A stretch of DNA of 59,500 nucleotides, counting the filler. It is 4 parts of 4 records of this genome, joined end to end, with 100 filler letters (N's around TTAATTAATTAA, not from the genome) between each part and the next. Parts side by side here need not be neighbours in the genome. Positions count along the whole stretch, not along the records: positions 34,227 to 53,339 come from SRR31156797_1147; 3 more parts are not named here. The stretch is one strand, 5' to 3'. Numbering within the stretch: position 1 is the stretch's first letter; each line of letters starts with the position of its first letter. A program made the translations under genes and the position numbers. The notes under the pieces are model-generated. The model ran no database searches and was not told where the DNA came from. It was given only the letters and a program-made list of their open reading frames with translations. Shown piece by piece: positions 37,126 to 53,439 of this stretch.

Positions 37126-37341
37126 TTACCTCTGTTTTATTGATTTCCTGTCATCAAATTGAATACGATTAACCAAGCTCGGGGTAGCCATCACAGTATC
37201 GAGGGAAAGAAGGATGCAGCAGCGAATGACTTCACTTTTACTCTTGTCCATCTCAAACGCAGCACCTGAAAGCCATTCCGCCATATCATCGGATACCTTG
37301 AATGTGACTGACACATCCGTAGCCATGTTCTCAACTCCCAT
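37126..37341 (-). CDS. Ribbon-helix-helix (CopG-like) protein
   Basis: VTFKVSDDMAEWL...KSKSEVIR. Confidence 0.65.
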   Translation of the reverse strand: MGVENMATDVSVTFKVSDDMAEWLSGAAFEMDKSKSEVIRCCILLSLDTVMATPSLVNRIQFDDRKSIKQR

Positions 37342-37356
37342 GCTTAGAAAAGCCCC

Positions 37357-37854
37357 TTATCCCAATGCTGCAACCTTTTTAGATCTCTCCATTTCTCTCT
37401 GGGCCAGGCACAGCACTTCGTCCCACTCACGGCGCAGCTCATCTCCCTTAAGTATCAACTTGTGCCAATCCTCTTCGTCTATCCTTCCGTCTGCAAGAGA
37501 TTCCCGGAGGGTTACGTTCAGGTTGGCGGCTGCAATATGGATATCCCCCATTTCCTTTTCCCAATCGGGTTTTTCATTCGCTTTAGCATTAGCTTTCGGG
37601 TTTAATGCCCATCCATCCGGTTCGAGAAACCGTTTGACTCGGGGGTGTCCATTTGATGCGATAACGGATGCGTGTAGGAAGAACGTCGACATCCGGATTT
37701 TACCATCCAGATAGTCGTAAACTGTGCGCTTTCCATACCCAGTAATGTCAGCGATTCTGGAAACAACGCCATCGTCAATATCGCTGTCAAATAGGAGCGT
37801 ATTCTTTAATTCACGCGCGATTTCCTTATCGTTCATCCGCATCATCAGAACCAT
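37357..37854 (-). CDS. Phage regulatory protein, CII-like
   Basis: N-terminal HTH (IADITGYGKRTVYDYL), C-terminal LADGRIDEEDW. Confidence 0.6.
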   Translation of the reverse strand: MVLMMRMNDKEIARELKNTLLFDSDIDDGVVSRIADITGYGKRTVYDYLDGKIRMSTFFLHASVIASNGHPRVKRFLEPDGWALNPKANAKANEKPDWEKEMGDIHIAAANLNVTLRESLADGRIDEEDWHKLILKGDELRREWDEVLCLAQREMERSKKVAALG

Positions 37855-37904
37855 ATTTTGAGTAGTATTAACAATATGTTTTGCTTATATTCCCCTAAAA
37901 CAAA

Positions 37905-38126
37905 TCACGCCCAAGGGTTCTGAATCCCAAGGGCGTGACAAGCTGCTTTATTGTGATATTTGCCAGCCAACCATTTCGCAATTGCTGTATGTGATTGCGA
38001 AATGTGAGATGCAAATGAACTTTTTGACCCAAAATGGCGAAGTATCAGGGCTTCCATCACTGTTTTGACTGGCCAGCCGCTTTCACGTAGGTAATTGAAC
38101 ACGTTTTGATTTTCGTTTGTTTCCAT
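37905..38126 (-). CDS. Small HTH protein
   Basis: FGSKSSFASHISQSHTAIAKWLAG. Confidence 0.55.
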   Translation of the reverse strand: METNENQNVFNYLRESGWPVKTVMEALILRHFGSKSSFASHISQSHTAIAKWLAGKYHNKAACHALGIQNPWA

Positions 38127-38158
38127 TTGAAACCTGTGGTAATGTTCTCTAATTTGAG

Positions 38159-38392
38159 ATGATAGAAGGGAAAACCATGGATAAATACTCTCAAGTTGAT
38201 ACTGCGAATGCTATTACTCTGGTATCTTTGGTAAAATTCCTAATTAGCAAAAACGTCATAGATGAAGGTGAATTCATTGAGTTCATGGACAAACGGGCAA
38301 CCAAAGCAGCGAGTGAAAAAGAATATCCTGAATTGGCAAAATCCCTAAAATGGATTACGAATCACATTCAAGGATCTTCTCAGCCCACTTAA
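38159..38392 (+). CDS. Hypothetical protein
   Basis: ORF with SD-like AGGG before ATG. Confidence 0.5.
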   Translation: MIEGKTMDKYSQVDTANAITLVSLVKFLISKNVIDEGEFIEFMDKRATKAASEKEYPELAKSLKWITNHIQGSSQPT

Positions 38393-38485
38393 GTATCTTC
38401 TCTTTTTCTTGAGGGCTTCCAGCCGACCCTTGAATGAGACATCGGATGGCCCGGAGTTCTTTCAAAATTTCGGATAGCAATTTTT

Positions 38486-38713
38486 TCATGCAGCACGTTC
38501 CTTTTTCGGTAGATTGACCAGGTATTTATAGAGCCGTCGCAGAATATCCTGGTAAAACTCTGAATCCCTGTACCCGGTCAACGCCATACTGATGGCATTC
38601 CGAGGAATACCCAGCACAGGTGTAAAGACATCTGTGATCGCGCCCTTGTAATCAAGGTCGTGATCCACCATGAGCTTTTTGACTGTTTTCCGTAACGGTT
38701 CTTGTTGTGGCAT
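38486..38713 (-). CDS. Cro-like HTH protein
   Basis: LGIPRNAISMALTG; phage-typical ERAA C-terminus. Confidence 0.55.
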   Translation of the reverse strand: MPQQEPLRKTVKKLMVDHDLDYKGAITDVFTPVLGIPRNAISMALTGYRDSEFYQDILRRLYKYLVNLPKKERAA

Positions 38714-38721
38714 AATGATAT

Positions 38722-39099
38722 TTGGAGTTTTTTTCTATGACCTACGCTTTGGTTGTGATTGAGAGACCTGACCTTTCAAACCCCGATAATATAGAAGCAT
38801 GGAATGATCTCTTATCAATTCTTTCGTGTAATAAAGGATCGAAAGTAGACCACCCCAGCCTCGACGACCCCAGAATAATTGGCGAAGGTATATTCCAAAT
38901 GAATATACGTGACGACGCAGGCATCCTTGTAGGTATGCTATCCTTCGCTCAAGAAATTGGGCTTCCATATCGGCTGGCACTTCTCGACCGTAAGCCGGAC
39001 TGGATTTATCCTGAAAACGATCAAGTTGAGGCGATAAGAGAAATATTCGTAGATTGTTTACAAAAACATCGTAGAAATACTGCTTCCGGTCTTCTTTAG
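38722..39099 (+). CDS. Hypothetical protein (conflicts with antisense ORF 38735-39259)
   Basis: GGAG SD before ATG at 38737; globular composition. Confidence 0.45.
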   Translation: MEFFSMTYALVVIERPDLSNPDNIEAWNDLLSILSCNKGSKVDHPSLDDPRIIGEGIFQMNIRDDAGILVGMLSFAQEIGLPYRLALLDRKPDWIYPENDQVEAIREIFVDCLQKHRRNTASGLL

Positions 39100-39265
39100 T
39101 CCGAAGGTCTTTGAATCTGCGTCTATCGCGATAGTCGTAATAATTGTCGTGGGTGATTTTGTGCAGTTTCATTAAGTGCCCCAGGTTGTAAGCGCCGCGT
39201 AAGGTCGATAATCGACATAGGCATCCGATTTCATGGTTTTCATATAGAGCATTCCTCATTTGATG

Positions 39266-39323
39266 TTGAGGGGATATTACACGAAATGAAATTTACTGTC
39301 AAGGTGGTATTTCATTATGAAAT
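39266..39323 (-). promoter_or_regulatory. Leftward early promoter plus operator
   Basis: Minus strand TTGACA-N17-TAATAT; palindrome ATTTCA-TTA-TGAAAT at 39309-39323. Confidence 0.8.
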
Positions 39324-39850
39324 CTAGTCAAGAAGATATTATTCAGCGGATAATGAAGGCATATAGCGCTACCGATGACGAGATGATGTCCAAATGCATG
39401 GGGTGTACTAAATCATCGGTTTCAAATTATCGGCATGGGCGGCGGAAGATTCCTATTAACCTGATAATGAAAGTATCCGAAGAAACGGGTCATTCAACCG
39501 ACTGGCTTTTAACCGGTAATTCGCCAAAAGCAAACGACACCCCCGTTGCTCATCAAGTTGTAGACCATGAAACATATCAGCAAGACACTGAAAGTCTCCT
39601 GGAAATCTACAAACACGGGAACCCAAAGACAATCTCGGCCATTCACGCAAATTTGGAAGAATTTGTTGAGAAAGTTCGTTACGAGAAGAAAGTCGCAGAA
39701 CTGGAAGAAACCGTTGCAAGTCAAGGTGTTGCCATAGAAGCCTATGGGAAAGCCCAGGAATCCATGAAGGAAGAGTTGAAAGAACTGAAATCCCAACTGT
39801 CTACAATGATACACGAGGTCCCCAAGAAAACGGCCAACGGGGGTGCGTGA
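39317..39850 (+). CDS. CI-like phage repressor (XRE HTH)
   Basis: MGCTKSSVSNYRHGRRKIP...STDWLLTG; coiled-coil C-terminus, no S24 peptidase. Confidence 0.8.
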   Translation: MKSSQEDIIQRIMKAYSATDDEMMSKCMGCTKSSVSNYRHGRRKIPINLIMKVSEETGHSTDWLLTGNSPKANDTPVAHQVVDHETYQQDTESLLEIYKHGNPKTISAIHANLEEFVEKVRYEKKVAELEETVASQGVAIEAYGKAQESMKEELKELKSQLSTMIHEVPKKTANGGA

Positions 39851-39997
39851 TTTACAAAGTGGTTGTAATGAACCATTATCCGGCTCTTTTGAAAGACAGT
39901 ATCTTCAGGAGATTTCGCTCGTATGGCCGTTATAAACTGTGGGCAATTCATAGAGATGGGGCAGTTATCTTAATATTAAGGATGGTGAGGAAACCCA

Positions 39998-41281
39998 ATG
40001 GACGAACATATTCCGAGGTGGAAGGTTTTTAGAGTCGATCACATAGATTACAAAGATAGATTGTTTTTCACTAAGGATTATGACGAAAAGTTCAATTTAA
40101 TTGAAAATGAGGCGTGTGATGTTCAAGAGTTTCTGGAAAGCGATTTAAATTTTGCGAAAACGCTCTATCCAGAATTTGTATATGATTTAGGCTTTTGTAA
40201 ATCCTGGAGGGAGCTTTGGAAAAAGTCGATTGAAAGTGATTTTACCAAAGAGTCGATTGCGAACCACGGTGCAAAAAAAAGACATATGAAGAAGTCACTC
40301 AAAGGAACTTCAAAAGAAGCTTTTTTGGAAGGGCCTGCTGGTTGGGATAGAGACTTCACCGATAATTTCGCTATATGGCCTTATTGGGACGAATATCGTT
40401 TCGAAATAGGCCGTTATGAAACGATTAACGGGATTGCGAAACAAAAACTAATCGATGAAGGTGGGTATGATTGGAGGGGTTTTGCTGTTTTTGTCGCAAA
40501 AGATAAAGGTGTTTTTTATGTTAATTTCGAGGTTAAACAGGATTGGTCCAAAGAGAGAGAAAACGAATTTTTTAAATGGATTGAGTCTGATGACCCCGGA
40601 CCTGTTATATTCAACGATCTTCTTTACGCCAAAGACCTTACAGATGTCTACACTGGTAAAGGCAACGTTGGTCATTGCATCGGATTCAATGAAAATAAGA
40701 TCGATATGGATGTTTTTGTTGGTGCAGATTACAAGAATTCAGATTACTTAAACCCACACCGGTATGCAGTTTTTACTGTGGATCGCGAATGGACGGTATG
40801 CTACCGAGAGGTATGGAAAAAAAGAAAAGCTGAACAGGACCGTATAGTAAAAGAAGCAAAACTTAATTTCGCAAGAATGGTCCTCAAGGATCGTTCTAAC
40901 AATCTTTCCATGGAAGCTATTCTGGAAAAAATCAGTTCATCCGATTTGGTCAGCGAGGAAGCATTGGAACTCATTGCCAAAGCATATGACCCTGTAGGGA
41001 TGGTTTATAAAAACGCCTATCAAGATGAAATCAATCGAATACGAGGTGAAAGCCATTGGACTTTCGGAACATCAATTCAGACTATAGAAGATCCTGAAAC
41101 AGGGTTACTGCGATTGGCTACGGGAACCAAAGGTGCATCTTTTTTGCTTGGCGTGACCCAAAGCACTGTTCGTAATCGGTTCAACAAAGGGAAGCTTGCC
41201 GGGATAAAGAACGATTCGATTTGGATATGGCTTGACACCATTAAAGACTCGGAGGAATTTGCAAATGTCGAAAGATTATGA
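39998..41281 (+). CDS. Hypothetical protein with C-terminal HTH
   Basis: 427 aa; GASFLLGVTQSTVRNRFNKGKL. Confidence 0.65.
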   Translation: MDEHIPRWKVFRVDHIDYKDRLFFTKDYDEKFNLIENEACDVQEFLESDLNFAKTLYPEFVYDLGFCKSWRELWKKSIESDFTKESIANHGAKKRHMKKSLKGTSKEAFLEGPAGWDRDFTDNFAIWPYWDEYRFEIGRYETINGIAKQKLIDEGGYDWRGFAVFVAKDKGVFYVNFEVKQDWSKERENEFFKWIESDDPGPVIFNDLLYAKDLTDVYTGKGNVGHCIGFNENKIDMDVFVGADYKNSDYLNPHRYAVFTVDREWTVCYREVWKKRKAEQDRIVKEAKLNFARMVLKDRSNNLSMEAILEKISSSDLVSEEALELIAKAYDPVGMVYKNAYQDEINRIRGESHWTFGTSIQTIEDPETGLLRLATGTKGASFLLGVTQSTVRNRFNKGKLAGIKNDSIWIWLDTIKDSEEFANVERL

Positions 41282-41402
41282 TAAAGATAGTGAAAATAAT
41301 GATGATTTTATCTTTGAGCATAACCCGGAAGAAAGAAACACGATCATAGACACCTTGCCACCACCGACGGAACCACCGGGGCAGGAAACCAATGATGAAT
41401 AG
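41265..41402 (+). CDS. 45-aa acidic Pro-rich peptide (not in ORF track)
   Basis: GGAGG SD at 41251; MSKDYDKDSENNDDFIFEHNPEERNTIIDTLPPPTEPPGQETNDE*. Confidence 0.55.
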   Translation: MSKDYDKDSENNDDFIFEHNPEERNTIIDTLPPPTEPPGQETNDE

Positions 41403-41413
41403 GAGAAAAACCT

Positions 41414-41935
41414 ATGTCAAACACAGCCTTTCACACCCTGCTATTTGGCGTTCGTCGTTCTATCCGATACCATTTGAGGCGCAGATCTTTTTTTGACCGT
41501 CTCAGTAAATTTTCGACATTCTTTGCCGCGTTGGCTGGAACCGCTACTGTTGCTTCTGTTCTGGGTAAAGCAGGTTATGGATGGACCGTTGCCTTTTCCG
41601 TGGCCGTGGCCGTCTTCTCAGTCATCGATCTGGTAATCGGATCCGCGCAGTCCGCCAGGTTGCATCACGATCTCGCGAGGCGATTTATCAATCTGGAAAA
41701 AGACATGGTTTCCCTGAAAAGCCCCACCCAAGAGGAGATTGACGGGCTAACCGGACGTCGGCTTGACATTGAAGCGGATGAACCTCCGCCTTTAAAGGTC
41801 TTGGATTGTATTTGTCATAATGAGTTATTGCGGGCCATGGGATACGACGAAAAAAAGTTTGCAAGAATACGCTGGTATCAACGCCTATTCTCCCAACTGT
41901 TTGATATTCGGGAGAATGTTATCACACGAAATTAA
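41414..41935 (+). CDS. SLATT-like 2-TM protein
   Basis: Basic N-terminal helix (YH..RR.F), two TM helices, A..H..L...F..L helix. Confidence 0.6.
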   Translation: MSNTAFHTLLFGVRRSIRYHLRRRSFFDRLSKFSTFFAALAGTATVASVLGKAGYGWTVAFSVAVAVFSVIDLVIGSAQSARLHHDLARRFINLEKDMVSLKSPTQEEIDGLTGRRLDIEADEPPPLKVLDCICHNELLRAMGYDEKKFARIRWYQRLFSQLFDIRENVITRN

Positions 41936-42366
41936 CCTATACAACGATCACCCATTTCCACCAGATATTTTTCAACCGCAGCGCAGAATAATTTTGAGCG
42001 GTCCAAACCTTTGGTTTCCTTGACGACTTTACCGGCCTTTTCCAACAGGTCCACCGGCACCATGACATTAATCCGCTTTTTCGGTTTATACGCTTCCATC
42101 ATTTTCTCATTTGGTACAACCGGGAAAACCAATTCCCCATCTCCGGCTTCCGTTTTGATTTTTTCATACGAACGTGGTGCCTGATATTCACGCCCCAGGC
42201 GACCGATCACGATCATACCACTTAATGCATCGGTGGCCATATGCAGGGCTTCATCCAGGTCCCCACCTTCAGTATGAACCCCTGGCGCATCCGGGAAGCT
42301 AACCCCCCAGCCTGTTTTCAAACGAAAAAATATACCGTAATAATGTTTCATTGTCGTTACCTCCAT
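41932..42366 (-). CDS. hicB: HicB family antitoxin
   Basis: VSFPD.PG..T.G....EA..MA.DAL plus C-terminal RHH (RINV.VP..LL, RS.L). Confidence 0.9.
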   Translation of the reverse strand: MEVTTMKHYYGIFFRLKTGWGVSFPDAPGVHTEGGDLDEALHMATDALSGMIVIGRLGREYQAPRSYEKIKTEAGDGELVFPVVPNEKMMEAYKPKKRINVMVPVDLLEKAGKVVKETKGLDRSKLFCAAVEKYLVEMGDRCIG

Positions 42367-42455
42367 TATTTATCGGCCTGTTTCAATATCCCTTTTGCCG
42401 TGTATTCATCAATTTCAGAGTGACGGGGGACGGGGCATCTGTAACCCTTCCGGCT
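42366..42455 (-). pseudogene. hicA: Truncated hicA toxin (C-terminal half only)
   Basis: Manual translation ...KGYRCPVPRHSEIDEYTAKGILKQADK*; in-frame stop upstream and no start codon. Confidence 0.7.
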
Positions 42456-42570
42456 TGATTATTACATACGTGTGTAAATATGCCAAGTCATGGCTATACG
42501 TTTTCGCAAAAGAATCATACTCACCACATGGCACTGAGTTTCGTGAAGGGTGTTTTTTTTTGCCTGAAAG

Positions 42571-42629
42571 ATTTCAATTTGAAATCTTCTCTTGACATAA
42601 AATTTCAATACGTGTAATATCCCCCTCAA
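42571..42629 (+). promoter_or_regulatory. Rightward early promoter plus operator
   Basis: ATTTCA-ATT-TGAAAT at 42571-42585; TTGACA(42592)-N17-TAATAT(42615). Confidence 0.8.
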
Positions 42630-42931
42630 GTTGTTCGAACACCCCCTGCGCCGCCGGATTGCCGAAACAATAACAGAATCCGGAGCGGGCCGCAAAAACA
42701 GGACGCACTGCGGAATGATCCGAGTACCCTGAGCGGTTGCGGGTGGAAGCAACGAGCAGTTGAAATGTCGCGGGTTAGCCAAGAGGGAACACGATGGAAA
42801 CAAAAGAGATCAAGTACAGCACCATCAATGGCATGGTGTCATGGAGTGGCAAAACCGAAAAACATGGGTTTATTGGGGTAATGAAGGGCAGCGTAGAACG
42901 GTTACAAGAAGCAATGGAAAAGGAATTCCCT

Positions 42932-43117
42932 TCATTCAGGGTCTCTCTTGTTCCCAAGTAACTCGTCCCGCGCTTCTTGGAGCCATATGATCAGGGTGTC
43001 TATTTGCTCCGGTGGGAATGTTACGCGATGGTAGTCTTCTTCGGCGGGCTCTCTCCCGTCAATAACGACAACATCTCCTTCGGTGGATACTGAAATTTCG
43101 TACATGTCTTTTTTCAT
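42932..43117 (-). CDS. Hypothetical small protein
   Basis: AGAGGA SD, globular 61 aa. Confidence 0.5.
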   Translation of the reverse strand: MKKDMYEISVSTEGDVVVIDGREPAEEDYHRVTFPPEQIDTLIIWLQEARDELLGNKRDPE

Positions 43118-43588
43118 TCTCTGATCCTCTTTTTAAAAAAAAGGGGGGGGGGTTGCTCGGAAATGTAAAACAAATTTCACCTGATGACAAGATTTTTTAA
43201 CCGTTTCGCGCAAGAGAGGCAGCAATGCCCCAGAGACGCGGAACAATAGCGCATTCACACCTAAACCCACAAACCTTTAACGCATAACCTCACGGGCAAA
43301 GGGCCGGGCGGTCCGGCCAGCGCGGAGAGACCTTCTTTCAGTTGGTGGATAGCTGGGATCTTCGATAATAGAGTACCGCACTTTGCCGGAAACCGTTAAC
43401 GTTAAGTAATCCTTAGAGAATTAATCGTCCAACCGCATGACGACGGGTAAAAACTGCGGATGATATGCCGGGGCAGCGCCGGCACGCCTGACGAGCGGAC
43501 AATGTCAACGCCATTTGGTTTACCAGAGTTGTAAAGCCCGGCGGTTACTTTGCCGTTCCGCCTGGCTTTACAAAAAAAAAGGAGGACC

Positions 43589-43699
43589 ATGGAAACCATA
43601 TTCGAATTCATAAATGCAATCTGGCCGGTTCTGGGCAGTACAATACTTGTCAGTGCTCTTTTTGCCCTGGTTCACCTGATAAAGGCCATTTTTTCATAA
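43589..43699 (+). CDS. 36-aa single-TM peptide (not in ORF track)
   Basis: AGGAGG SD; METIFEFINAIWPVLGSTILVSALFALVHLIKAIFS*. Confidence 0.6.
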   Translation: METIFEFINAIWPVLGSTILVSALFALVHLIKAIFS

Positions 43700-43724
43700 A
43701 CCCGTTTTGCACCTGGAGGTCGTC

Positions 43725-44822
43725 ATGAACGCGCAAGAATTGCAGGCGACATTAGAGTCGTTTCAAAAGGAAGGGGCACATTTGCTCCTACCGTCCACAT
43801 ACATTCCCGATATCCCTAAATATCATACGGTTGCGGTTGAGAGGGTATTCCTATCTCCCGATAAAAGCGAAGGCGATGTTTACACCCAAAAACAGAAACT
43901 CGCTTTAACCCGCCAGGGCCTCATGAAACTGGCCAATGCTGCCGGAATGATATGGGACCCCTCTGGCTCAAAGCGGTTGGATGATCGAACCGACAAAGAT
44001 TATGTGGTGTACCAAGCTGTGGGCGGATTAAAAAAACTCGACGGCACCCCGCTTTTTATGAAAGCGGAGTATGACCTGGATTTTGAAATTATCCGGGAAG
44101 AGACTGAAGAGGGATATGAGGAAAAAAAAAGGAAGGATTGGGTTACTGGAAAATGGAAAAAAGACTGGTTCATCAGGATGTCTGATGACCAAAAGGACGA
44201 ATATATCAATAAATGCATCCGGCGGGATGTACTTCAGAAACGTAAACATAAGATCAAGTTGGCCGAAACGGGTGCCATGACCCGGGTAATCCGGGGTTTG
44301 CTAAATCTCAAATCCACCTACACCGTTGAGGAACTGACAAAACCGTTCATCGTTGTCCGTCTGGTCTTCCAACCGGATTATGATGACCCTGAGATTAAAA
44401 GCCGCATGGCCGCCGCAGCCGTGGGTGCGGTTGCAGGAATATTTGGCCCGGCATCAACACAGCCGGCGCTCCCCCCGGCATCCCAGGCTTGCCCGGTATC
44501 TGATGCGGAGATCCCGGATGCTCTACCGATGGATGATGATATCCCCGGTGACATTCCAACCGGTGCGGATCCCGAGGCTACAAATGAAGGCCCTGATCTT
44601 GGGGAGTTCCTGGGAATGTCCGCAAAAAACCGACTTTCCCTTCTCGGGGCAATGGCGAAAAACCGCGGCATGAACGATTCAGCAGCACTATGGGCCTTTT
44701 GGACGAAAACAACGGGCAAGCCCGCGCCGCAAAACGCGTTGAAAATGCCCGAGGATGACATGGTTTCGCTGTTTGAAGCACTAGAATCGTTCAGCCCTGT
44801 TGATGACGATATCCCATTTTAG
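43725..44822 (+). CDS. Phage protein, probably recombination/ssDNA-annealing associated
   Basis: GGAGG SD before ATG 43725; SSB-like DDDIPF C-terminus; precedes sbcD/sbcC. Confidence 0.55.
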   Translation: MNAQELQATLESFQKEGAHLLLPSTYIPDIPKYHTVAVERVFLSPDKSEGDVYTQKQKLALTRQGLMKLANAAGMIWDPSGSKRLDDRTDKDYVVYQAVGGLKKLDGTPLFMKAEYDLDFEIIREETEEGYEEKKRKDWVTGKWKKDWFIRMSDDQKDEYINKCIRRDVLQKRKHKIKLAETGAMTRVIRGLLNLKSTYTVEELTKPFIVVRLVFQPDYDDPEIKSRMAAAAVGAVAGIFGPASTQPALPPASQACPVSDAEIPDALPMDDDIPGDIPTGADPEATNEGPDLGEFLGMSAKNRLSLLGAMAKNRGMNDSAALWAFWTKTTGKPAPQNALKMPEDDMVSLFEALESFSPVDDDIPF

Positions 44823-44833
44823 GAGCTGATATT

Positions 44834-46021
44834 ATGAAAGTACTCCATTTTGCAGATGTCCATGCCCGCGATAAGGATTTGCCCGAAATCGAAGAATGCC
44901 TAATCGAAATCATCCAGGTTGCACACGATGAAAATCCGGACCTGATTGTCATGGCCGGGGACACATTTGACAGTCGAATGGTTCGCCTGGACTCACTATC
45001 ATCGAAGCTCATCTTTGAGAGCTACAAACACTTGGCCGATATAGCTCCGATGATAGTGATCGTGGGCACTCCGTCACATGACGGCATGGCGCCGGAAGTC
45101 CTGGAACACATCAAAGCAGATCATGAAATCTATGTAGCAGAAATTCCCGAACAGATACTCTTGACCGCTGACAATCATTTTACAGTTTCCCCCGTAATCG
45201 AGACCCCTAAAGCTGTTATTTCGATGGTCCCTGCCCCTACCAAACAATTTTGGGAACAGGCGGGAAACGGCAACCAGGATATTGAAGAAGCTGACCAGGG
45301 GATAGCGAATGCTTTGGGTGTCATGATGGCAGGCTTCGGCGCCACAGCTTATGATCACGATTGCCCCCACATTATAGCCGGTCATTTTACAGTGGGTGGC
45401 GCCCAGGTTTCCGAAACGCAGGTGATGACCGGCAGGGAGATCGAGGTCTCCCGTGAACAAATCGGATACGCAAATGCCGACCTGGTGGCATTAGGCCACA
45501 TTCATTATGCCCAAAAGATAGACAGCAACATTTTCTATTCCGGATCGATTTACAGAAAAGATTGGGGTGAATTGGAAGACAAAGGATGCTTTATCCACAC
45601 CCTTGAAAGCGGCACCCTTCATAGCGTATTTCACGAAACCCCGTCAAAAAAGCGCATGAAAGTGTCGGCCGATCTTACAAACGGTTGTCGGTCCCTGGAA
45701 GATGCTCTCAGCAAATATGACCACCTGGAATTGCTCGATGCCCGAGTCCGTTTTGAAATCCGCGTCTTTCAGGATGAGGCTGGGAACATCGATACGGATT
45801 CGCTCATAAAGCAGTACCCGGACCTCGATATTAAAATTCAGCAGGTCCCCAGGGAATCCGTTAGATCATCCGCGATCCTCAAGGTTGAAACGCTTCCGGA
45901 CAAGATCAAAGCTATGGCGGAACTTCGACGGGAAACAGTCCCGGCAACCATCCTTGCCAAAGCTGAACACCTGGAACTCATGCATGCGGATGAACTTTTA
46001 AAAATGGTGGTCAATGGCTAA
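44834..46021 (+). CDS. SbcD/Mre11-like metallophosphoesterase nuclease
   Basis: D.H, AGD.FD, GTPSHD, ALGHIH, YSGS motifs. Confidence 0.88.
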   Translation: MKVLHFADVHARDKDLPEIEECLIEIIQVAHDENPDLIVMAGDTFDSRMVRLDSLSSKLIFESYKHLADIAPMIVIVGTPSHDGMAPEVLEHIKADHEIYVAEIPEQILLTADNHFTVSPVIETPKAVISMVPAPTKQFWEQAGNGNQDIEEADQGIANALGVMMAGFGATAYDHDCPHIIAGHFTVGGAQVSETQVMTGREIEVSREQIGYANADLVALGHIHYAQKIDSNIFYSGSIYRKDWGELEDKGCFIHTLESGTLHSVFHETPSKKRMKVSADLTNGCRSLEDALSKYDHLELLDARVRFEIRVFQDEAGNIDTDSLIKQYPDLDIKIQQVPRESVRSSAILKVETLPDKIKAMAELRRETVPATILAKAEHLELMHADELLKMVVNG

Positions 46022-46244
46022 AGCCAAATGGATGCCAATGGAAAAGCTTTGTTGTAACTGCCATTCGTACGACCTTTTCCATCATAAACGACCGCCAGAA
46101 GACAACGAATACGGTCAGGCATTTTGTGAATATTACGACAAATTCTTTCCAAACCAGGGGCCGGGGAACGATCCTGCCGGATTGAGGACCTGCATTCACT
46201 GGAAACAGAAATGGAAACCGGAGGAAAAGGATGAAGATAAATAG
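46014..46244 (+). CDS. Small Cys-rich protein
   Basis: CCNC...C...C; overlaps both neighbours. Confidence 0.55.
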   Translation: MAKAKWMPMEKLCCNCHSYDLFHHKRPPEDNEYGQAFCEYYDKFFPNQGPGNDPAGLRTCIHWKQKWKPEEKDEDK

Positions 46245-48516
46245 ATTGGCACTCAAGGGGTTCATCGGCATTAAAAAAGGAATGGGTCTTGACGAAATTG
46301 AATTGGACCTTTCCATGCTTAACGGCCTGATCGCATTAAGCGGGAAGAACGGCGCGGGAAAAACTTCCGTGTTGGAATCACTTACGCCGTACAGAACTCT
46401 CGCCAGCCGGAAAAAGGCACTAACCGCGCATTGTTTCATGAAGGATTCTAAAAAAGAGTTGGATTTTGATTTCCAGGGTGACAGCTATCAAACCCGGATC
46501 AAAATCAATGCGGATTCGGGTAAACAGGAAGGGTTTATTTGGCAAAACGGCGCCAGCCTCGTGAACGGAAGCGCACGGGAATATGACCGAAAGATTGCTG
46601 AGATATTTGGTTCAAAGGACCTCTTTTTCAATTCCATCTTTTGCGCCCAAAACGCACAGAAACTATCAGACCTGACCACCTCGAAACTGAAAGAGCTTTT
46701 TTCAGAATTCCTACAGCTGAACAAATACATTGCATACGAGAATACTGTCAAGAAATGCCTTGGGGCACTGGATGCACAACTTGGTGCCTACGAACGTCAA
46801 ACCGAGTCCCTGCAAGAAAAGATTGCACTATTGATAGGGTGTGAAGGGCAGCTTGAGGGAACCATTAAGGCTCAAGGTGAAGAAAAGACACGGCTGCAGC
46901 GGGTTGAAATTGAAATCGAAGCAAACGGGAAAGCCATTATAACTCTGAAAGAACGCATTGCCGCCATGGAAGCCATGGAAGCGAGATCAGATGATTTCCG
47001 GCAAAGGATCTATTCCACCGAATGCGCTCTTTCCGATGAAAAAACAGCGTATGAAGGGCGTGTAGGGGGTATCCGCAGCGACCTGCGAAAATGCAAAAAT
47101 GATCTTTCCAAAATAGAAACCATCCTGAAAATGAAAGACGAAATTGAAACGGCCGTATCTCAGAAAGCGGAGGTTGAAACACGTATTGAAGCACAAACAT
47201 CTAAGGCTGAAAATTGCCAAACAGAGCTATCAGAGATCCGGGAGAAAATCTATCAGCATGATCAAACTATTCTACCGTCAATCCAATCCCATAAGCGGGA
47301 AATGGATATTCCGATCTTGAAAGAGCGTATCATCAACGCAGAGGCCAAGGCCGTGGAATTAGAGAAGCGGGATCAGGAATGCACATCAAGCGTTTGTTCT
47401 TTCATCGTCGGTGCATTGCAAGCTCAGGAATCGATTGATGGATTGCGGAAGGACCTTGCAGCACTTGAAACAGAAGTGGCGAAACATAACGAGCATGTTG
47501 AAACCGTGAGAAAAAAAGCGGCCGAAGAGAAAGCCGAAATGCAGGGGATTGAAAAAGAGGTCTTACTCAAAATGACCTTACTGAAGAACAGACTTTCCAA
47601 GGCGAAAGTCGAACTTGCTGAGCATGCGCGACGAGCGGAACATCACGACGATTTAAAAGTAGCAATGGCTCAAAAATCCGCAATTGAGGCGCGGGCTTCC
47701 GAATTGACCGGTCAGGGGATGAAGGAAAAGCGTACATTTGATGCGAAAACCGTCAAATTACAGGCAGAAATGTCAAAATTTAAGGCTTCCTTGGAAGAAA
47801 TTACATCAAAAATCGACAATTCCGCGAAAGAAAGGCTTGGGGAACTGTTGGGAGTAAACACGAATAAAATCAACGAAAGAACATTTCTAAGAGACAATAT
47901 CAACAGGCTTGAAGCCGAAATACAACAATGCCGAAATGATATCGAAAGAGAAAAAGCTTACCGGGAGCAAAAAGCCGAAATCATCACGAAAATTGAAACC
48001 TTAAAAACCCAGATATCAGAATGGACCTACCTTCGCAATGCTGTATCAAAAGACGGACTCCGGGCCCTGGAGATTGATGGGGTTGCGCCGTCCATTTCCG
48101 CCTACGCAAACCAAATCCTTTTCAACACATTCGGTCCGGCTTATTCCGTGAAATTGCGGACACAGGACGATGAAGGCCGGGAAACCTTGGATATCTTGGC
48201 GCTTGAGGAAGACGGCCGGGAAACCCTCCTTGACGATTTGAGTGGTGGGGAAAAGGTTTGGAGTCTAAAGGCTCTGCGCCTAGCCATGACGCTGATCAGC
48301 AAAGAGAAAAGCGGGAAGGCATTTTTTACCGCCATGGCAGATGAGGAAGATGGGGCACTTGACGCTGGAAACTCACAAAATTTCGTCCATATGTATCGCT
48401 CTTTCATGGAAACCGGAGGATTCGATGACTGCTTTTTCATCTCTCACCGGCCGGAATGCGTAGCGCTCAGTGACCACGTTCTTTCGTTCGAAAGTGGCTG
48501 CATAAACATCAACTAA
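46231..48516 (+). CDS. SbcC/Rad50-like SMC ATPase
   Basis: GKNGAGKT, Q-loop, coiled coil with central C-x4-C, LSGGE, DE.DG.LD, ISH. Confidence 0.9.
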   Translation: MKINRLALKGFIGIKKGMGLDEIELDLSMLNGLIALSGKNGAGKTSVLESLTPYRTLASRKKALTAHCFMKDSKKELDFDFQGDSYQTRIKINADSGKQEGFIWQNGASLVNGSAREYDRKIAEIFGSKDLFFNSIFCAQNAQKLSDLTTSKLKELFSEFLQLNKYIAYENTVKKCLGALDAQLGAYERQTESLQEKIALLIGCEGQLEGTIKAQGEEKTRLQRVEIEIEANGKAIITLKERIAAMEAMEARSDDFRQRIYSTECALSDEKTAYEGRVGGIRSDLRKCKNDLSKIETILKMKDEIETAVSQKAEVETRIEAQTSKAENCQTELSEIREKIYQHDQTILPSIQSHKREMDIPILKERIINAEAKAVELEKRDQECTSSVCSFIVGALQAQESIDGLRKDLAALETEVAKHNEHVETVRKKAAEEKAEMQGIEKEVLLKMTLLKNRLSKAKVELAEHARRAEHHDDLKVAMAQKSAIEARASELTGQGMKEKRTFDAKTVKLQAEMSKFKASLEEITSKIDNSAKERLGELLGVNTNKINERTFLRDNINRLEAEIQQCRNDIEREKAYREQKAEIITKIETLKTQISEWTYLRNAVSKDGLRALEIDGVAPSISAYANQILFNTFGPAYSVKLRTQDDEGRETLDILALEEDGRETLLDDLSGGEKVWSLKALRLAMTLISKEKSGKAFFTAMADEEDGALDAGNSQNFVHMYRSFMETGGFDDCFFISHRPECVALSDHVLSFESGCININ

Positions 48517-48528
48517 GGGGGAAGCAGG

Positions 48529-49437
48529 ATGAAAATACAAGAATCAATAGAAACGTCTATCTCCTGCTTGAGCGATGGAGATTTAGTGGACAAGGCTTAC
48601 AGCGGGTTACTTTCTATCCTTGAACTGGTGAAAACAGACAAAAACACAGGTAAAATTGGCAACATGTGGATAAACAATGGGGGCAGGATACGGAGGGATT
48701 GGGATGTGTTTGAGCCTCTTGTGAAAGGGATCTATATACCGGGGTCGGAAAGATGTTTTTGGAGCGGTTTTTTGGACCCTGTTGATCACCCACCACCAGA
48801 ATCAGGATGTGTTTACATTAAACCAAGATATACCAATTACAGCTTTGAGTTTATTACAATTAAAAGAATCCGACGATTTCCAAAGCATGCGGTATGTCAG
48901 TGTAAGAATCCGGCTTTTATTTATAAGACAATCAATGTTTTTGTCCCAAGCAACAGTTCCGACGATGTTTTTTGTGAACCTGGATATGTCGCTATCGATA
49001 AAGACGGACTCTTTCACACAGTTACCGATAGATTGAAATTGAGAAACAACCTTCTTGGCAATATCATAACTTCAATTAAAGAAGATTTCCAAAACGCAAA
49101 TCATTTTGCCGGGGGTGCAATATCCCTGCTGTCTGACAGGCGCTACCTCTGGAATGTTAGAACAGAAGAGGATTCAGGGTTTTCTGCTCCAGCAGTCGTG
49201 AATTTCGGTGTGGAAAAAGAATTGATAAAGAGCCTTTTTTTCGCAAGGGATGAACCTATGACGAAATTGGGCCGAAAAAGACCAATTTTACATTGGGTTA
49301 AAGCCCATGAAAGAAGGATCAAGAAAGGAATCGGGATAGAAATAGACCGCTATTTGAGGGGTATAACAAAATTCAAAATGGGTGAGCTTGAATTTTCGAT
49401 CACCAAACCAATAAAAGGCGGCATAAGCATCAATTGA
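48529..49437 (+). CDS. Hypothetical phage protein
   Basis: 302-aa ORF in operon; C-terminal HWVKAHER motif. Confidence 0.6.
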   Translation: MKIQESIETSISCLSDGDLVDKAYSGLLSILELVKTDKNTGKIGNMWINNGGRIRRDWDVFEPLVKGIYIPGSERCFWSGFLDPVDHPPPESGCVYIKPRYTNYSFEFITIKRIRRFPKHAVCQCKNPAFIYKTINVFVPSNSSDDVFCEPGYVAIDKDGLFHTVTDRLKLRNNLLGNIITSIKEDFQNANHFAGGAISLLSDRRYLWNVRTEEDSGFSAPAVVNFGVEKELIKSLFFARDEPMTKLGRKRPILHWVKAHERRIKKGIGIEIDRYLRGITKFKMGELEFSITKPIKGGISIN

Positions 49438-49561
49438 TATCGACAATATGCCGTTTGCCCTCTGCGCTATGACGGCCCACCTTGGGGACGGTGCAAGACC
49501 AATACAAGGCGCCCGCGCGTATCAAAGGCCATGATAATGAGTCGAAGGGAAAGAGAGAGAG

Positions 49562-49912
49562 TTGGCAAGGCAAACGGCATTGAAAAAAAGGAGCACCCCA
49601 ATGACATTCGAAGAAATAGACACCCTGCAGCATCGAATAGAAACGCTATTCATGGATCAATGGGAGGGAATGCCCGAATCCAAACCCACCTACACCGAAT
49701 GGTTTTACAGCGATGGCGGTCCACGGGATGCGATTGACACGCTCTTGAACAAAATGCGGGATGCTGTAATTCAAAAAACGTATGTCCCGGGATGTATCAG
49801 GTCAAAAAATCAATTTTTCCGGCCGATTCAGGTGTGTGAGAGATGCAAGGATAAAGACTCTTGTGCCCCCTATATGGAAACAAAAGAGCGCCTTGACGAG
49901 GTGGCGGCATGA
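49562..49912 (+). CDS. Hypothetical protein (start probably ATG at 49601)
   Basis: AGGAG SD; Cys cluster; ATGA overlap with the helicase. Confidence 0.55.
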   Translation: MARQTALKKRSTPMTFEEIDTLQHRIETLFMDQWEGMPESKPTYTEWFYSDGGPRDAIDTLLNKMRDAVIQKTYVPGCIRSKNQFFRPIQVCERCKDKDSCAPYMETKERLDEVAA

Positions 49913-51588
49913 GCCTCCGGAAGCATCAGAAAGAATTTGGCGAAACAATTGACGGGATCATAGAGGGATCCGGCGTGAAAACAATTGTCCTGGACGTAAC
50001 ACCCGGCGGCGGGAAGTCTGCCATTCCTCCTATTGCCGGAAAACTCATTAAAGCAGGCCTGGCCGACGCGATAGCATGGATTGTGCCTCGGAAGGCATTA
50101 CAAGATCAGGGTGAGAGAACGTTTCTTGACCCTTTTTTTCGAGACATACTCGGGCATAAACTCACAATCCGCACAAGCACGAACGATGTGGACCCGTGCC
50201 GCGGGCTTAATGGCCTGATCACGACATATCAAGCCCTCGGTTTGTCCAACTGGAACCTCGTCGAAGATTTCAGTCGGAAGCGATACATTTTAATCCTTGA
50301 TGAGTTCCATCATGTGGCAAAAGCCGGGACGTGGCATAAGGCCCTCGCCCCGTTGGTCGAAAAAGCCGCGTTTAAGGTCTTCATGACTGGAACCATGGCC
50401 AGGGGGGACCGGGAAGACATCGCTTTTTTGAAATACCAGATGGGAAGGCCGGTTTTCGGCCCCGAAACCAAATATATTGGGTACGGCCGTACCATGGCCC
50501 TGCAGGAACGGGCAATCATCCCGTTGCGCTTCCGTCTTTCCGATGCACAAGCGGCTTGGAGGAACGAAAGCAATGAAAAAGTCGAAGTTGAAAGTATCGC
50601 TAGAGTATACCGCCCTAAAGAGCTTTCAGCCGCCATTTACACGGCAGTGCGGACAGATTTCGCAAAAGCCCTTCTGGAAAGCAGCCTGGCTGACTGGCGC
50701 CAATACCGGTCGCGTACCGGCCATATGTCGGCCTTCCTGGCGGTAACCGCGGATGTGAAGCATGCCAAGCAAGTATTGAAATACCTTCAGGCCCGCGGCC
50801 TTCACGCGGAAATCGCAACCAGCCATGACAGTCCGCAGGCGCACAGGGCAATCAAAGGGTATAAGGCTGGAGAGTTCGATATTTTAGTCTCGGTGGCCAT
50901 GGCTTATGAAGGTCTCGATGTCCCGAGAATTACACATATCGCGAGTCTGACGCAGATCCGCAGTGAGCCTTGGATAATTCAGATGCTTGCCCGCGCGGTA
51001 AGAGTTGATCGCGCCATTCCATACGAGCAGCAAGAGGCTTTCATCTATGCCCCGGATGACCACCTTTTCAGGAAGATCGTGAACAATATCAAAGCCGAGC
51101 AGACAGCCATGGCTGGAAAATTCGGGCTCGAAATCGAAAGAGAATCCAAATCAGAAGGCGGCGGTGGACCGGACGTAATCCCCATTGGATCCACTCTCAC
51201 CGGGGACCGTTCCATCTTCCTGGGCGGAGGAAACGGAAACGCCTTCACACCTCCGCCCCCGGCGCCCATGCCGAAAACCCCGACAGAAATTGAGGCGGAA
51301 TTGAGAACGGAGATTGAGGAACACATCCGGAAATACTGCTACACGCACCACATTAAGATCCAGAAGATCAACGCCAGGATAAAACGGGAAACGGGGAAAG
51401 CCCGGCCGGAAATGACTTTGGCGGAGCTGGAGACGACCCTTGCCTTAGTTCGGGATCGGTATCCTTTGGACCGGAAGGGTAGGAAGCCAATAAGGCCCGT
51501 TATCAGCAAGCCAAGGACGGTTGTATGTGAGGGTCCGGGGGTACATGTGCAGGGGATTCTTTGGGAAACTCCGGAATGGCGAGCGTGA
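49909..51588 (+). CDS. SF2 DExH helicase (ResIII-like)
   Basis: TPGGGKS, DEFHH, TGT, EGLDVP, Q.L.RA.R. Confidence 0.88.
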   Translation: MSLRKHQKEFGETIDGIIEGSGVKTIVLDVTPGGGKSAIPPIAGKLIKAGLADAIAWIVPRKALQDQGERTFLDPFFRDILGHKLTIRTSTNDVDPCRGLNGLITTYQALGLSNWNLVEDFSRKRYILILDEFHHVAKAGTWHKALAPLVEKAAFKVFMTGTMARGDREDIAFLKYQMGRPVFGPETKYIGYGRTMALQERAIIPLRFRLSDAQAAWRNESNEKVEVESIARVYRPKELSAAIYTAVRTDFAKALLESSLADWRQYRSRTGHMSAFLAVTADVKHAKQVLKYLQARGLHAEIATSHDSPQAHRAIKGYKAGEFDILVSVAMAYEGLDVPRITHIASLTQIRSEPWIIQMLARAVRVDRAIPYEQQEAFIYAPDDHLFRKIVNNIKAEQTAMAGKFGLEIERESKSEGGGGPDVIPIGSTLTGDRSIFLGGGNGNAFTPPPPAPMPKTPTEIEAELRTEIEEHIRKYCYTHHIKIQKINARIKRETGKARPEMTLAELETTLALVRDRYPLDRKGRKPIRPVISKPRTVVCEGPGVHVQGILWETPEWRA

Positions 51589-51604
51589 TGATCTTAAAGT
51601 TTAT

Positions 51605-51708
51605 GCGGCTGGGCTCACAGCCGAAGGGTGAGGGCTACCCAGCCACTCACCAACCTAACAACCACTATAGGTGAAACATTTCAACCTGTATAGCATCAAG
51701 ATGTTGGG
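51605..51708 (+). ncRNA. tracrRNA-like scaffold, copy A
   Basis: Shares a 29-nt identical block, CACTCACCAACCT, GGTGAAACA and ATCAAGATGTTGGG with 53157-53281; hairpins; anti-repeat GGTGAAAC. Confidence 0.7.
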
Positions 51709-51793
51709 GTTTCACTCACGGGCGCGGGGATGAGTCGTTACATGTTAACAAGGGAAGGAAGGGGCATTAGTTTCACCCACGGGCGCGGAACCG
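51709..51793 (+). CRISPR. Mini CRISPR array: 29-nt repeat, 32-nt spacer, degenerate repeat
   Basis: GTTTCACTCACGGGCGCGGGGATGAGTCG (51709-51737); TTACATGTTAACAAGGGAAGGAAGGGGCATTA (51738-51769); GTTTCACCCACGGGCGCGGAACCG (51770-51793). Confidence 0.8.
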
Positions 51794-51831
51794 CACAAAT
51801 CAAGACCCGGAGCTACTATTAGGAGGGAAAA

Positions 51832-53223
51832 TTGAAGACACATACAAGGACAATAAAACCGCAATTGAAAATCAAAGCTTCTTCCCCCGACGCAAAAAAA
51901 CGGGCGTACAAACGTTTGTATCAGATATCAAATGATGCATGGCGGGCGGCCAATTGGGTCATCGGTGGCCAATATTTAAACGATTTACTTATGCGCCGGG
52001 TTTATGCTCGGAAAAAGATTAACGCAAAAAAAGACACGGATGCGATACAGGCGGTTGAAAAAGAAATTTTCGATAAAACGGGATTCTTCGGGTTAAAACG
52101 TCAAGCGTCAACGGAAAGGGATATTAAAGAAGCTTTCCCTGAGTTGCCGCCGTGTGTGACAAATTCTATGAATAGTGTGCTTTTCGCAAATTACAAAAAA
52201 GACAAACCGGATATGCTCATGGGAAAACGATCTTTACGCTCATATAAAGAGGGCATGCCTATCCAGGTTTCCAAAGCATCCGTGACGTTTTTTAAAGAAG
52301 GCAACAATCATTACATTCGATGGAAGTTGAGTAGGTCTGAGGAAATTCTATTCACCATTGAATACGGCAAAGACAAAGCGAACTTCCAGGGAACCGTTTC
52401 AGCTATCTTAGAGGGCGATCTCGATTTTTCAGCGCCACAAATTCAAATAAAAAAAAGAAAAACCTTCCTTTGTTTACCTGCCAAAGAACCTGAAAGACCG
52501 GCAGAGATAGACCCGGAATTATCCGTGGGGGTCAATCTGGGGATGCTCACGCCTGCTTACGTTGTGCTTGCCGACAATTCCGAACATCAACCCATCGGTT
52601 CGGGTAACGATTTTGGTCGGGTCAGATTGCAGATGCAGGACCGTCGAAAACGCCTGCAAAAAGACTTAAAATCGGCAAGGGGCGGTAAAGGCAGGAAAAA
52701 GAAGATGAAGGCCATGTCTCGAATCCGAGACAAAGAACGGAATTTTGCGCGAAGCTACAATCATTTTGTCAGCAAGGAAATACTCAATTTTACTACGAAA
52801 AACCGGGCGGGAGTGATCAAGCTGGAGATGTTGGAAGGTTTTGGAAAGTCCGAAAGAAATGCTTTGGTTCTGCGGAACTGGTCATATTTCGAGTTACAGG
52901 AAATGGTGAAATACAAGGCCAAACGATTAGGCATCAAGGTTGTAAAAGTGGACCCGTATATGTCCAGCCAAACTTGTGCCTTATGTGGGCATCACGAAAA
53001 AGGTCAGGTAGATAACGTATCCAAGACGTTCCTTTGTAAAGCGTGCAACAAAATTATGGATTCTGACCACAATGCGGCTCTGAACAATGCGAAATCGACC
53101 AATATCGTTACCAAGAAAGAGCAATGCGTTGTTTGGAAAAAAAATATGAAAAAAAAGCGGCTGGGCTCACAGCCGAAGGGTGAGGCTGAGGGTGAAGCCC
53201 TTGAGCACTCACCAACCTCGTAA
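51832..53223 (+). CDS. Cas12f/TnpB-family RNA-guided protein, RuvC-I Asp replaced by Asn (predicted nuclease-dead)
   Basis: SLRSYKEGMPI, GVNLG (N235), GGKGRKKK, NH.VSK, IKLE (E332), LRNWSYFELQ..V.YKA, CALC/CKAC zinc finger, DSDHNAALN (D412); AGGAGG SD, TTG start. Confidence 0.88.
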   Translation: MKTHTRTIKPQLKIKASSPDAKKRAYKRLYQISNDAWRAANWVIGGQYLNDLLMRRVYARKKINAKKDTDAIQAVEKEIFDKTGFFGLKRQASTERDIKEAFPELPPCVTNSMNSVLFANYKKDKPDMLMGKRSLRSYKEGMPIQVSKASVTFFKEGNNHYIRWKLSRSEEILFTIEYGKDKANFQGTVSAILEGDLDFSAPQIQIKKRKTFLCLPAKEPERPAEIDPELSVGVNLGMLTPAYVVLADNSEHQPIGSGNDFGRVRLQMQDRRKRLQKDLKSARGGKGRKKKMKAMSRIRDKERNFARSYNHFVSKEILNFTTKNRAGVIKLEMLEGFGKSERNALVLRNWSYFELQEMVKYKAKRLGIKVVKVDPYMSSQTCALCGHHEKGQVDNVSKTFLCKACNKIMDSDHNAALNNAKSTNIVTKKEQCVVWKKNMKKKRLGSQPKGEAEGEALEHSPTS

Positions 53224-53281
53224 CCCTTTTTCAGGCGCTATGTGTTGCGGGTGAAACAGATATCCCTATCAAGATGTTGGG
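53157..53281 (+). ncRNA. tracrRNA-like scaffold, copy B (overlaps the 3' end of the cas12f-like ORF)
   Basis: Same conserved blocks as copy A; anti-repeat GGGTGAAAC at 53249-53257. Confidence 0.72.
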
Positions 53282-53339
53282 GTTTCACCCACGGGCGCGG
53301 GGATGAGTCGGTCATTGGTGGCGGCATCGGATAGCAGCC
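53282..53339 (+). CRISPR. Start of a CRISPR array, truncated at contig end
   Basis: Repeat GTTTCACCCACGGGCGCGGGGATGAGTCG (53282-53310, 28/29 identical to 51709-51737) plus 29 nt of putative spacer. Confidence 0.72.
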
Positions 53340-53439
53340 NNNNNNNNNNNNNNNNNNNNNNNNNNNNNNNNNNNNNNNNNNNNTTAATTAATTAANNNNN
53401 NNNNNNNNNNNNNNNNNNNNNNNNNNNNNNNNNNNNNNN
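53340..53439. other. Artificial contig linker
   Basis: N44-TTAATTAATTAA-N44. Confidence 0.98.

Follow-up and report, generated by a model that had tools for sequence, protein, structure and literature searches.

Two tracrRNA-like scaffold copies with a covarying loop-to-repeat pseudoknot flank a Cas12f-like gene on a phage-like contig

What is the structured element that occurs twice, once on either side of a small nuclease gene, in the 59,500-nucleotide (nt) stretch of DNA analyzed here (the window), and does it guide that nuclease? The gene is cas12f-like, and both it and the two flanking elements, copies A and B, lie on the plus strand of the contig piece at positions 34227 to 53339 (SRR31156797_1147). 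Because the element has the guide-pseudoknot-stem layout described for Cas12f and TnpB, we identify it, with a probability of roughly 85%, as the guide-RNA scaffold, of the kind of a trans-activating CRISPR RNA (tracrRNA), of a miniature type V-F-like CRISPR-Cas12f system carried on a phage-like contig. A preliminary description of this DNA had gone further and suggested that scaffold, repeat and spacer might together form a natural single-guide RNA.

Both elements are tracrRNA-like scaffold copies, each running on the plus strand into a 28-nt CRISPR repeat (Table 1). Together with the repeat they measure 131 to 152 nt, and they have in common a first hairpin (hairpin 1), a second stem (stem 2), a linker with an anti-repeat and a repeat that ends in TGAGTC. 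The hairpin CGGCTG-[GGCTCA]-CAGCCG that had been claimed for both copies was found in each of them, and so was the stem GGTGAG/CTCACC, whose inner hairpin differs in sequence but still pairs. These inner-hairpin differences are compensatory, and both copies retain every helix. The interval first given for copy A (51605-51737) did contain the scaffold, while its bounds needed correction, the unit being 51606-51736 and position 51737 the first base of the spacer. Aligned with each other, the copies had a mean column identity of 76%, with a near-identical 5' module and repeat and a variable middle. Hairpin 1 and stem 2 were present in the minimum free energy (MFE) folds of both copies, which reached -47.5 kcal/mol in copy A (z -2.54; 4 of 200 shuffles folded equally well) and -67.1 kcal/mol in copy B (z -3.29; 1 of 200 shuffles was as good). 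Copy B starts within the last 22 codons of the cas12f open reading frame (ORF; stop codon at 53221-53223). No Rfam family matched in the scaffold region, the sole match being a chance microRNA (E value of 0.43). An A/T-rich motif (CTATA/TATAT-like) stands just 5' of the anti-repeat in both copies (51664-51669 and 53239-53245); its sequence is kept in many homologous units, where a small palindrome often holds it, either looped out or paired in the stem, and it might serve as an RNA contact or an internal promoter, or as neither.

Homologous scaffolds were located in related loci (L numbers) taken from metagenome, genome and viral contigs, using a covariance model built on hairpin 1 plus stem 2. 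Searched against the window and 99 loci, the model gave 76 matches with E values of 1 or less, and all but one of these (75) were on the strand of the gene. Applied to 62 further loci, mostly of distant TnpB, it gave 6 matches, 2 of them strong, and both strong ones belong to a single viral relative. A single-sequence scan of the viral contigs found no relative, and an alignment-based scan of them found one (L161). Among 48 close loci, a set that includes the window and several near-duplicates, the scaffold was present in 44: on both sides of the gene in 11, upstream only in 10 and only at or over the gene 3' end in 23, leaving 4 with a scaffold on neither side. Given that 11 of these loci have it on both sides, the two-copy layout is a family trait. 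At nearly all loci, the scaffold enters a CRISPR array on the same strand, and its overlap with the 3' end of the nuclease ORF, again on the same strand, is seen in copy B and in many relatives. Loci L013 and L014 have the layout of array A, that is, scaffold, repeat, spacer, degenerate repeat and gene.

Covariation was scored on an alignment of 33 units with 28-nt repeats, each of which was taken from where hairpin 1 begins to where the first repeat ends. Near-identical duplicates (L020, L021, L161, L023, L025, L083 and L030), units cut by contig ends (L028:1, L031 and L033), the first of two tandem modules of L037 and the uncertain truncated units of L023-26 and L032 were left out, and the L016 row, misaligned at its 3' end, was counted as a gap. 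Across the homologous loci, hairpin 1, stem 2 and the pseudoknot all carried compensatory changes. Hairpin 1 was paired in 96.0% of cells, with changes on both sides in 4 of its 6 pairs; the corresponding values for stem 2 were 96.6% and 5 of 9 pairs. In the 36-nt-repeat family (12 units), both helices were 100% paired. RNAalifold, run on the first 17 units, recovered nothing beyond hairpin 1, stem 2 and one small hairpin within the repeat.

The long-range pairing had been proposed between the loop of hairpin 1 and the 6 nt with which the repeat ends, immediately ahead of the spacer, and it proved to covary strongly. In the 28-nt-repeat family, 94.8% of 192 cells were paired and both-side changes were found in 4 of 6 pairs (33 cells); none of 500 shuffles matched the observed pairing or the covariation score, and controls in which the register was slid were 7 to 44% paired. 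The 36-nt-repeat family reached 98.6% with other sequences, its loops and tails being GYTGYA with TRCARC versus GGCYCA with TGRGTC in the 28-nt-repeat family. When the 45 units were pooled, we counted 22 distinct loop/tail combinations, every one of which pairs at 5 or 6 of the 6 positions (14 at all 6). Loops combined with foreign tails formed a mean of 3.86 pairs, and the observed total was matched in 0 of 20,000 permutations. The distant relatives L035, L036, L038-L041, L052, L054, L069, L070 and L075 have 36-nt repeats and proteins 25 to 44% identical, and they keep hairpin 1, stem 2 and the pseudoknot with a wholly different pairing sequence.

The RNA had been placed on the plus strand, an assignment that G-U pairs, gene-strand model matches and fold energies all support. 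G-U pairs that favor this strand occupy 23 of 32 cells at position 2 of the pseudoknot and 12 of 33 cells at the base of stem 2, the fold energy was better on the plus strand in 33 of 34 units (by a mean of 9.3 kcal/mol), and almost all covariance-model matches lie on the gene strand. The same data bear on whether the conserved segment might be a DNA-level element (a CRISPR leader, a promoter or a minus-strand terminator) instead of a structured RNA. Such an element would account for the conserved TATAT-like motif in the linker and for the terminator-like score that copy B's hairpin 1 and the T run after it receive on the minus strand. It is nevertheless hardly credible, given that neither copy A nor the relatives have the T run, that compensatory changes in three helices, including a long-range pseudoknot, are unexpected of a DNA site, and that G-U pairs and fold energies favor the plus strand. 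A promoter and terminator scan gave counts no higher than in shuffles. The terminator-like site itself (minus strand, 53149-53175) combines hairpin 1 of copy B with the complement of an A run of lysine codons and is probably incidental, since it was not seen at copy A or in relatives.

The anti-repeat required a different test. Since MAFFT aligned the variable linker too poorly for a column test, we computed duplex energies of each linker with the first 14 nt of its own repeat. An anti-repeat pairing with the repeat 5' end, as had been described, was recovered in both copies, with 8 bp in copy A (-10.7 kcal/mol, z -1.98) and 9 bp in copy B (-17.5 kcal/mol, z -3.37), where the MFE fold pairs it as well. 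The anti-repeat lies 30 nt before the repeat in copy A and 23 nt before it in copy B, compared with a prior estimate of about 25 to 30 nt. Because the own-repeat duplex had a z value below -2 in 14 of 36 units, copy B included, the anti-repeat is real but variable across the family. In L052, L054, L069 and L070, the linker has 41 to 43 nt and the repeat 5' end looks self-complementary; L069 has an anti-repeat (z -2.36), and no clear one was found in L052, L054 or L070.

A further helix, CCAAC/GTTGG, is weakly supported. The complementarity that had been noted for it does exist in the sequence, and 79.3% of cells were paired, with a few compensatory changes. However, the two C's of CCAAC (51650-51651) are those that close GGTGAG/CTCACC in copy A, so that this helix and stem 2 cannot both be complete at once, and the closing pairs of stem 2 show clear compensatory changes in the 36-nt-repeat family and, within the 28-nt-repeat alignment, in L037. 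Shifting this helix so that AACC pairs with GGTT over the start of the repeat gained no support, with 61.4% of cells paired versus 61.7% in shuffles.

The protein encoded between the two copies has a Pfam Cas12f1-like_TNB domain (E value of 4.5e-20) and matches NCBIfam guided_TnpB (E value of 2.7e-46). A profile of the window protein and 38 homologs, searched against solved structures, matched 8hr5 at 1e-105, 9nzo/9nzr at ~5e-104, structures of the AsCas12f type at ~1e-62 and Un1Cas12f1 at ~1e-42, while ISDra2 TnpB and LaTranC reached only ~1e-10. The single sequence searched with phmmer gave the same leading structures (8hr5, 1.9e-61; 9nzo, 1.8e-60) and matched 9n9c, a dead Cas12f (dCas12f), at 2.6e-34. 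We take 8HR5 to be CnCas12f1; its structure file is labeled "Transposase." Identity to the solved members is moderate, the N-terminal third aligns poorly, and the nearest database proteins (58 to 59% identical) are all metagenomic and called transposase where they are named. On these matches, the effector is placed within the Cas12f clade. The 9NZO/9NZR report describes an obligate dimer, Cas12f-MG119-28, from a family of 433 to 488 amino acids (aa) with guide RNAs of 129 to 156 nt (bioRxiv 10.1101/2025.08.14.670346).

Database labels of the homologs (transposase or TnpB), the guided_TnpB match (2.7e-46) and the way in which copy B overlaps the gene 3' end, as omegaRNAs do, would also suit a TnpB element of the IS200/IS605 type of insertion sequence (IS), with the scaffold as omegaRNA and right end and the "spacers" as flanking DNA. 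This is very improbable: the guides sit between 28-nt repeats in regular arrays, in the window as well as in relatives, and among solved structures the nearest matches are to CRISPR-associated Cas12f proteins, with ISDra2 TnpB a long way behind. In addition, no transposase family appeared among the 14 contig ORFs scanned, in a scan that was not exhaustive and did not search for IS ends.

In the Cas12f-like protein, the RuvC-I Asp is replaced by Asn (GVNLG, residue 235; codon AAT at 52534-52536). That this is the catalytic position is assumed from the alignment to GVDLG of 8hr5 together with the general form of the RuvC motif. The RuvC-II Glu, the RuvC-III Asp and both CxxC pairs (the zinc-finger cysteines) are retained, so that the triad reads Asn-Glu-Asp and not the intact Asp-Glu-Asp. 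The latter occurs in 101 of 121 clade proteins, the RuvC-I residue being Asn in 12 and His in 3; 9 of the 12 Asn proteins, that of the window included, keep Glu and Asp. The sister protein P0001 (58% identical; Shimodaira-Hasegawa-like approximate likelihood ratio test [SH-aLRT] value of 99 in a quick tree) has the same Asn. Since it is recurrent in the clade and common to this sister, the Asn looks like a maintained variant. With this residue the enzyme may cleave poorly or not at all and be left with DNA binding.

The same substitution could instead mark a decaying locus, with a remnant Cas12f whose active site is broken, eroded mini-arrays and an RNA shape that is inherited but unused. An array A reduced to one spacer and a degenerate terminal repeat fits such decay, as do the lack of a spacer target in the window, IMG/VR and GenBank phages and the long terminal branches of the window protein and its sister (0.74 and 0.62, in that order, versus a median of 0.32). 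We consider it improbable, though, because the 463-aa frame is intact and the zinc-finger cysteines and the other two catalytic residues are kept, because the distribution of the Asn among clade proteins looks like maintenance, and because neither scaffold copy has lost a helix.

With regard to the arrays, the repeat core occurs 3 times in the window versus 0 expected. Array A has a single spacer, and array B is cut by the contig end within its first spacer. On other contigs of the same run, the probable source sample, array B continues: spacer B1 is 34 nt long and is followed by at least three more repeats. The assembly break lies within CRISPR array B, which bridges the 20.9-kb contig to a contig of 22,991 nt. 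Most relatives, too, have three or more repeats behind a single scaffold.

Does the scaffold act in cis, as the proposed natural single-guide RNA, or in trans? It adjoins the first repeat without a break and in the same orientation, which allows the first spacer to be used in cis, as a natural single guide. The further repeats of array B, three or more, mean that it must serve in trans as well, in the manner of a tracrRNA. Our reading is that it works as a tracrRNA. A cis-folded guide with the first spacer, in addition to that role, is possible at somewhat less than even odds, judging from the arrangement of the locus, and for the one-spacer upstream unit a single-guide reading appears plausible. 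The original proposal is thus partly supported: the one-spacer unit A and the fused units of relatives fit it, and the further repeats of array B speak against use in cis alone.

Strictly cis-only use, in which the scaffold would serve only in one molecule with its adjacent repeat and spacer and the system would be a hard-wired two-guide device and not an adaptive array, is unlikely. Several features speak for it all the same. Unit A has one usable spacer, after which comes a repeat without a pseudoknot tail. In the window and at 10 other loci, every array comes with a scaffold copy of its own, which would be needless for a trans-acting RNA. Some relatives have compact, omegaRNA-like units of about 68 to 80 nt (two in L027, one in L016, one in L019 and two in L032) that join hairpin 1 and stem 2 to no more than the 3' part of a repeat; the pseudoknot tail is kept, there is no anti-repeat and unique sequence comes next. 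In L023-L026, the upstream loop fits its own adjacent tail better (5 of 6 positions) than the downstream array tail (4 of 6), as judged by eye. There is also a precedent in dCas12f tied to sigma factors, for which a half repeat fused with the tracrRNA has been described (PMC10691335 and PMC13472631). What speaks against strict cis use is the further extent of array B and the three or more repeats per scaffold of most relatives, which need pairing in trans unless only the first spacer is used. As a separate observation, the "guide" of the L032 upstream unit enters the ribosome-binding site and the start of its own cas12f gene.

Some results weigh against reading the two elements as scaffolds of a Cas12f guide system. 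Neither spacer (A1 or B1) led to a target: there was no second match in the window at up to 3 mismatches, no exact 22-mer in IMG/VR and nothing meaningful in GenBank phages, where the only match was of 18 nt (E value of 0.6). In the duplex test, the anti-repeat was weak or undetectable in 22 of 36 units, and that of copy A can instead fold locally with TTCAACC. The RuvC-I Asn implies that the window Cas12f may not cut and that the locus could be decaying. The pseudoknot count depends on repeat 3' boundaries set from array periodicity and homology (for L054 and L075, from homology alone), and since the rows are related, the shuffle controls overstate significance. The stronger argument for the pseudoknot is the slid controls together with pairing sequences that differ entirely from one repeat family to the other.

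The tracrRNA-like scaffold would operate as follows if, as homology suggests, it resembles the Cas12f and TnpB complexes of known structure. The scheme builds on what the analysis shows, namely, covarying helices, the RNA strand, the family of the protein and the layout of the locus. The plus strand would be transcribed, and hairpin 1 and stem 2 would fold. The anti-repeat would pair with the first 8 to 9 nt of the repeat (repeat:anti-repeat 2 [R:AR-2]) and the 6-nt hairpin-1 loop with the final 6 nt of the same repeat (R:AR-1, the pseudoknot). The guide would thereby be made to begin directly 3' of the pseudoknot, on a Cas12f that is probably a dimer. The first spacer could be read in cis, and the later array repeats would have to be read in trans. 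Expression, processing, use in cis or trans, the protospacer-adjacent motif and the effect on a target are what we infer by analogy.

These assignments agree with what Nakagawa 2023 (PMC10097598) reports: the pseudoknot (PK) of the Cas12f single-guide RNA (sgRNA) is repeat:anti-repeat 1 and stem 5 is repeat:anti-repeat 2, the guide-PK-stem structure is conserved among Cas12 guide RNAs, and the omegaRNA is called a natural sgRNA. The preliminary comparison with the pseudoknots of TnpB omegaRNA and Cas12f was thus apt. In known Cas12f loci, the tracrRNA region has the nuclease gene on one side and the repeats on the other (PMC7229846).

In order to put the locus into perspective, we compared it with known systems. 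It resembles type V-F Cas12f in its effector clade and in a tracr region beside the array on the gene strand (PMC7229846), in the anti-repeat duplex and the pseudoknot at the repeat 3' end by the guide (PMC10097598) and in a scaffold total of ~130 to 155 nt, a likeness of length and layout. It differs in having the scaffold twice, on either side of the gene and each running into its own array, in a 3' scaffold that begins inside the reading frame and in the RuvC-I Asn. As in the ISDra2 TnpB omegaRNA, the nuclease gene overlaps the start of the RNA with its 3' end and a pseudoknot links a 5' segment to the bases before the guide (PMC10097598); unlike there, the guide is a CRISPR spacer between repeats, no TnpA was seen, nor were transposon ends, at which no search was aimed, and the protein similarity is remote (profile E value of 1e-10). 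The dCas12f-sigmaE/Sigma-TnpB systems, which have chimeric single-guide RNAs, are likewise Cas12f derived, in a scenario of a minimized array, a half repeat fused to the tracrRNA and an inactivated RuvC (PMC10691335 and PMC13472631). Their parallels here are the fused units of relatives and, in the window, the one-spacer array and the RuvC-I change. However, no rpoE or helix-turn-helix (HTH) partner was seen beside the cas12f-like gene, the protein has an intact C terminus and intact RuvC-II/III, the locus retains full repeats and an ongoing array, and 9n9c is more distant. TranC (LaTranC) is reportedly a small TnpB-derived effector linked with both omegaRNA-like and CRISPR-type RNAs, an intermediate between transposon and CRISPR; the window protein matches it remotely (E value of ~3e-10) and is not of the same family. 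Cas12p "hacker" and Cas-delta were rejected as candidates, their papers describing other families.

The contig on which the Cas12f locus sits resembles a temperate phage or some comparable mobile element. Besides the genes listed in Table 1, it encodes two phage protein families of unknown function, and the named genes of 34227-51600 are all on the plus strand except two. The window as a whole consists of four contig pieces and is not one molecule; N runs around a TTAATTAATTAA linker join them.

Table 1 Coordinates of the scaffold copies, arrays and other features (window positions unless a locus is named)
Feature	Position	Strand	Remarks
Scaffold copy A incl. repeat	51606-51736	+	
Copy A hairpin 1	51606-51623	+	6-bp stem, CGGCTG 51606-51611 / CAGCCG 51618-51623
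Copy A hairpin-1 loop GGCTCA	51612-51617	+	6 nt, 5' strand of pseudoknot
Copy A stem 2	51627-51651	+	GGTGAG 51627-51632 / CTCACC 51646-51651; inner hairpin GGCT-ACCC-AGCC
Copy A anti-repeat GGTGAAAC	51670-51677	+	Pairs with repeat positions 1-8, one G-U
CRISPR repeat A1, 28 nt	51709-51736	+	TGAGTC 51731-51736, 3' strand of pseudoknot
Spacer A1, 33 nt	51737-51769	+	Bounded by repeats
Terminal repeat of array A	51770-51797	+	3' third degenerate, without pseudoknot tail
cas12f-like gene, 463 aa	51832-53223	+	TTG start after GGAGGG
Scaffold copy B incl. repeat	53158-53309	+	
Copy B hairpin 1	53158-53175	+	Loop 53164-53169
Copy B stem 2	53179-53213	+	Longer inner hairpin of other sequence, pairing kept
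Copy B anti-repeat GGGTGAAAC	53249-53257	+	9 bp with repeat positions 1-9
CRISPR repeat B1, 28 nt	53282-53309	+	Pseudoknot tail 53304-53309
Spacer B1	53310-53339	+	Cut by contig end
Compact units of relatives	L027:3788-3858; L027:2111-2178 (-); L016:1597-1671; L019:5840-5913; L032 near 2388 and 4500		
SNF2-helicase/DNA-methylase fusion	34375-36873	-	
CI-type repressor	39317-39850	+	
HicB-like antitoxin	41932-42366	-	
SbcD/SbcC-like pair	44834-48516	+	
Helicase	49909-51588	+	
N-run joins	15383-15482, 34127-34226, 53340-53439		

The pseudoknot architecture is already known for Cas12f and TnpB guide RNAs and the principle is published; the present result is ordinary in kind, well supported and useful as comparative material. 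A bolder possibility, which we regard as unlikely, is that a phage-borne Cas12f traded cutting for binding and has true natural single-guide RNAs at both first spacers. If true, the locus would be a living intermediate, in which a dual-guide Cas12f is collapsing to omegaRNA-like guides for gene control and not for defense. As it stands, natural variation alone shows that two repeat families, whose pairing sequences are unrelated, both keep the loop-to-repeat pseudoknot of Cas12f guide RNAs, and the covariance model is ready for locating the guide scaffolds of uncharacterized miniature Cas12f genes. The locus and its relatives also set side by side the stages that have been discussed for traffic between omegaRNA and CRISPR, namely, a scaffold over the gene end, a scaffold with a full array, one with a single spacer and one fused to half a repeat.

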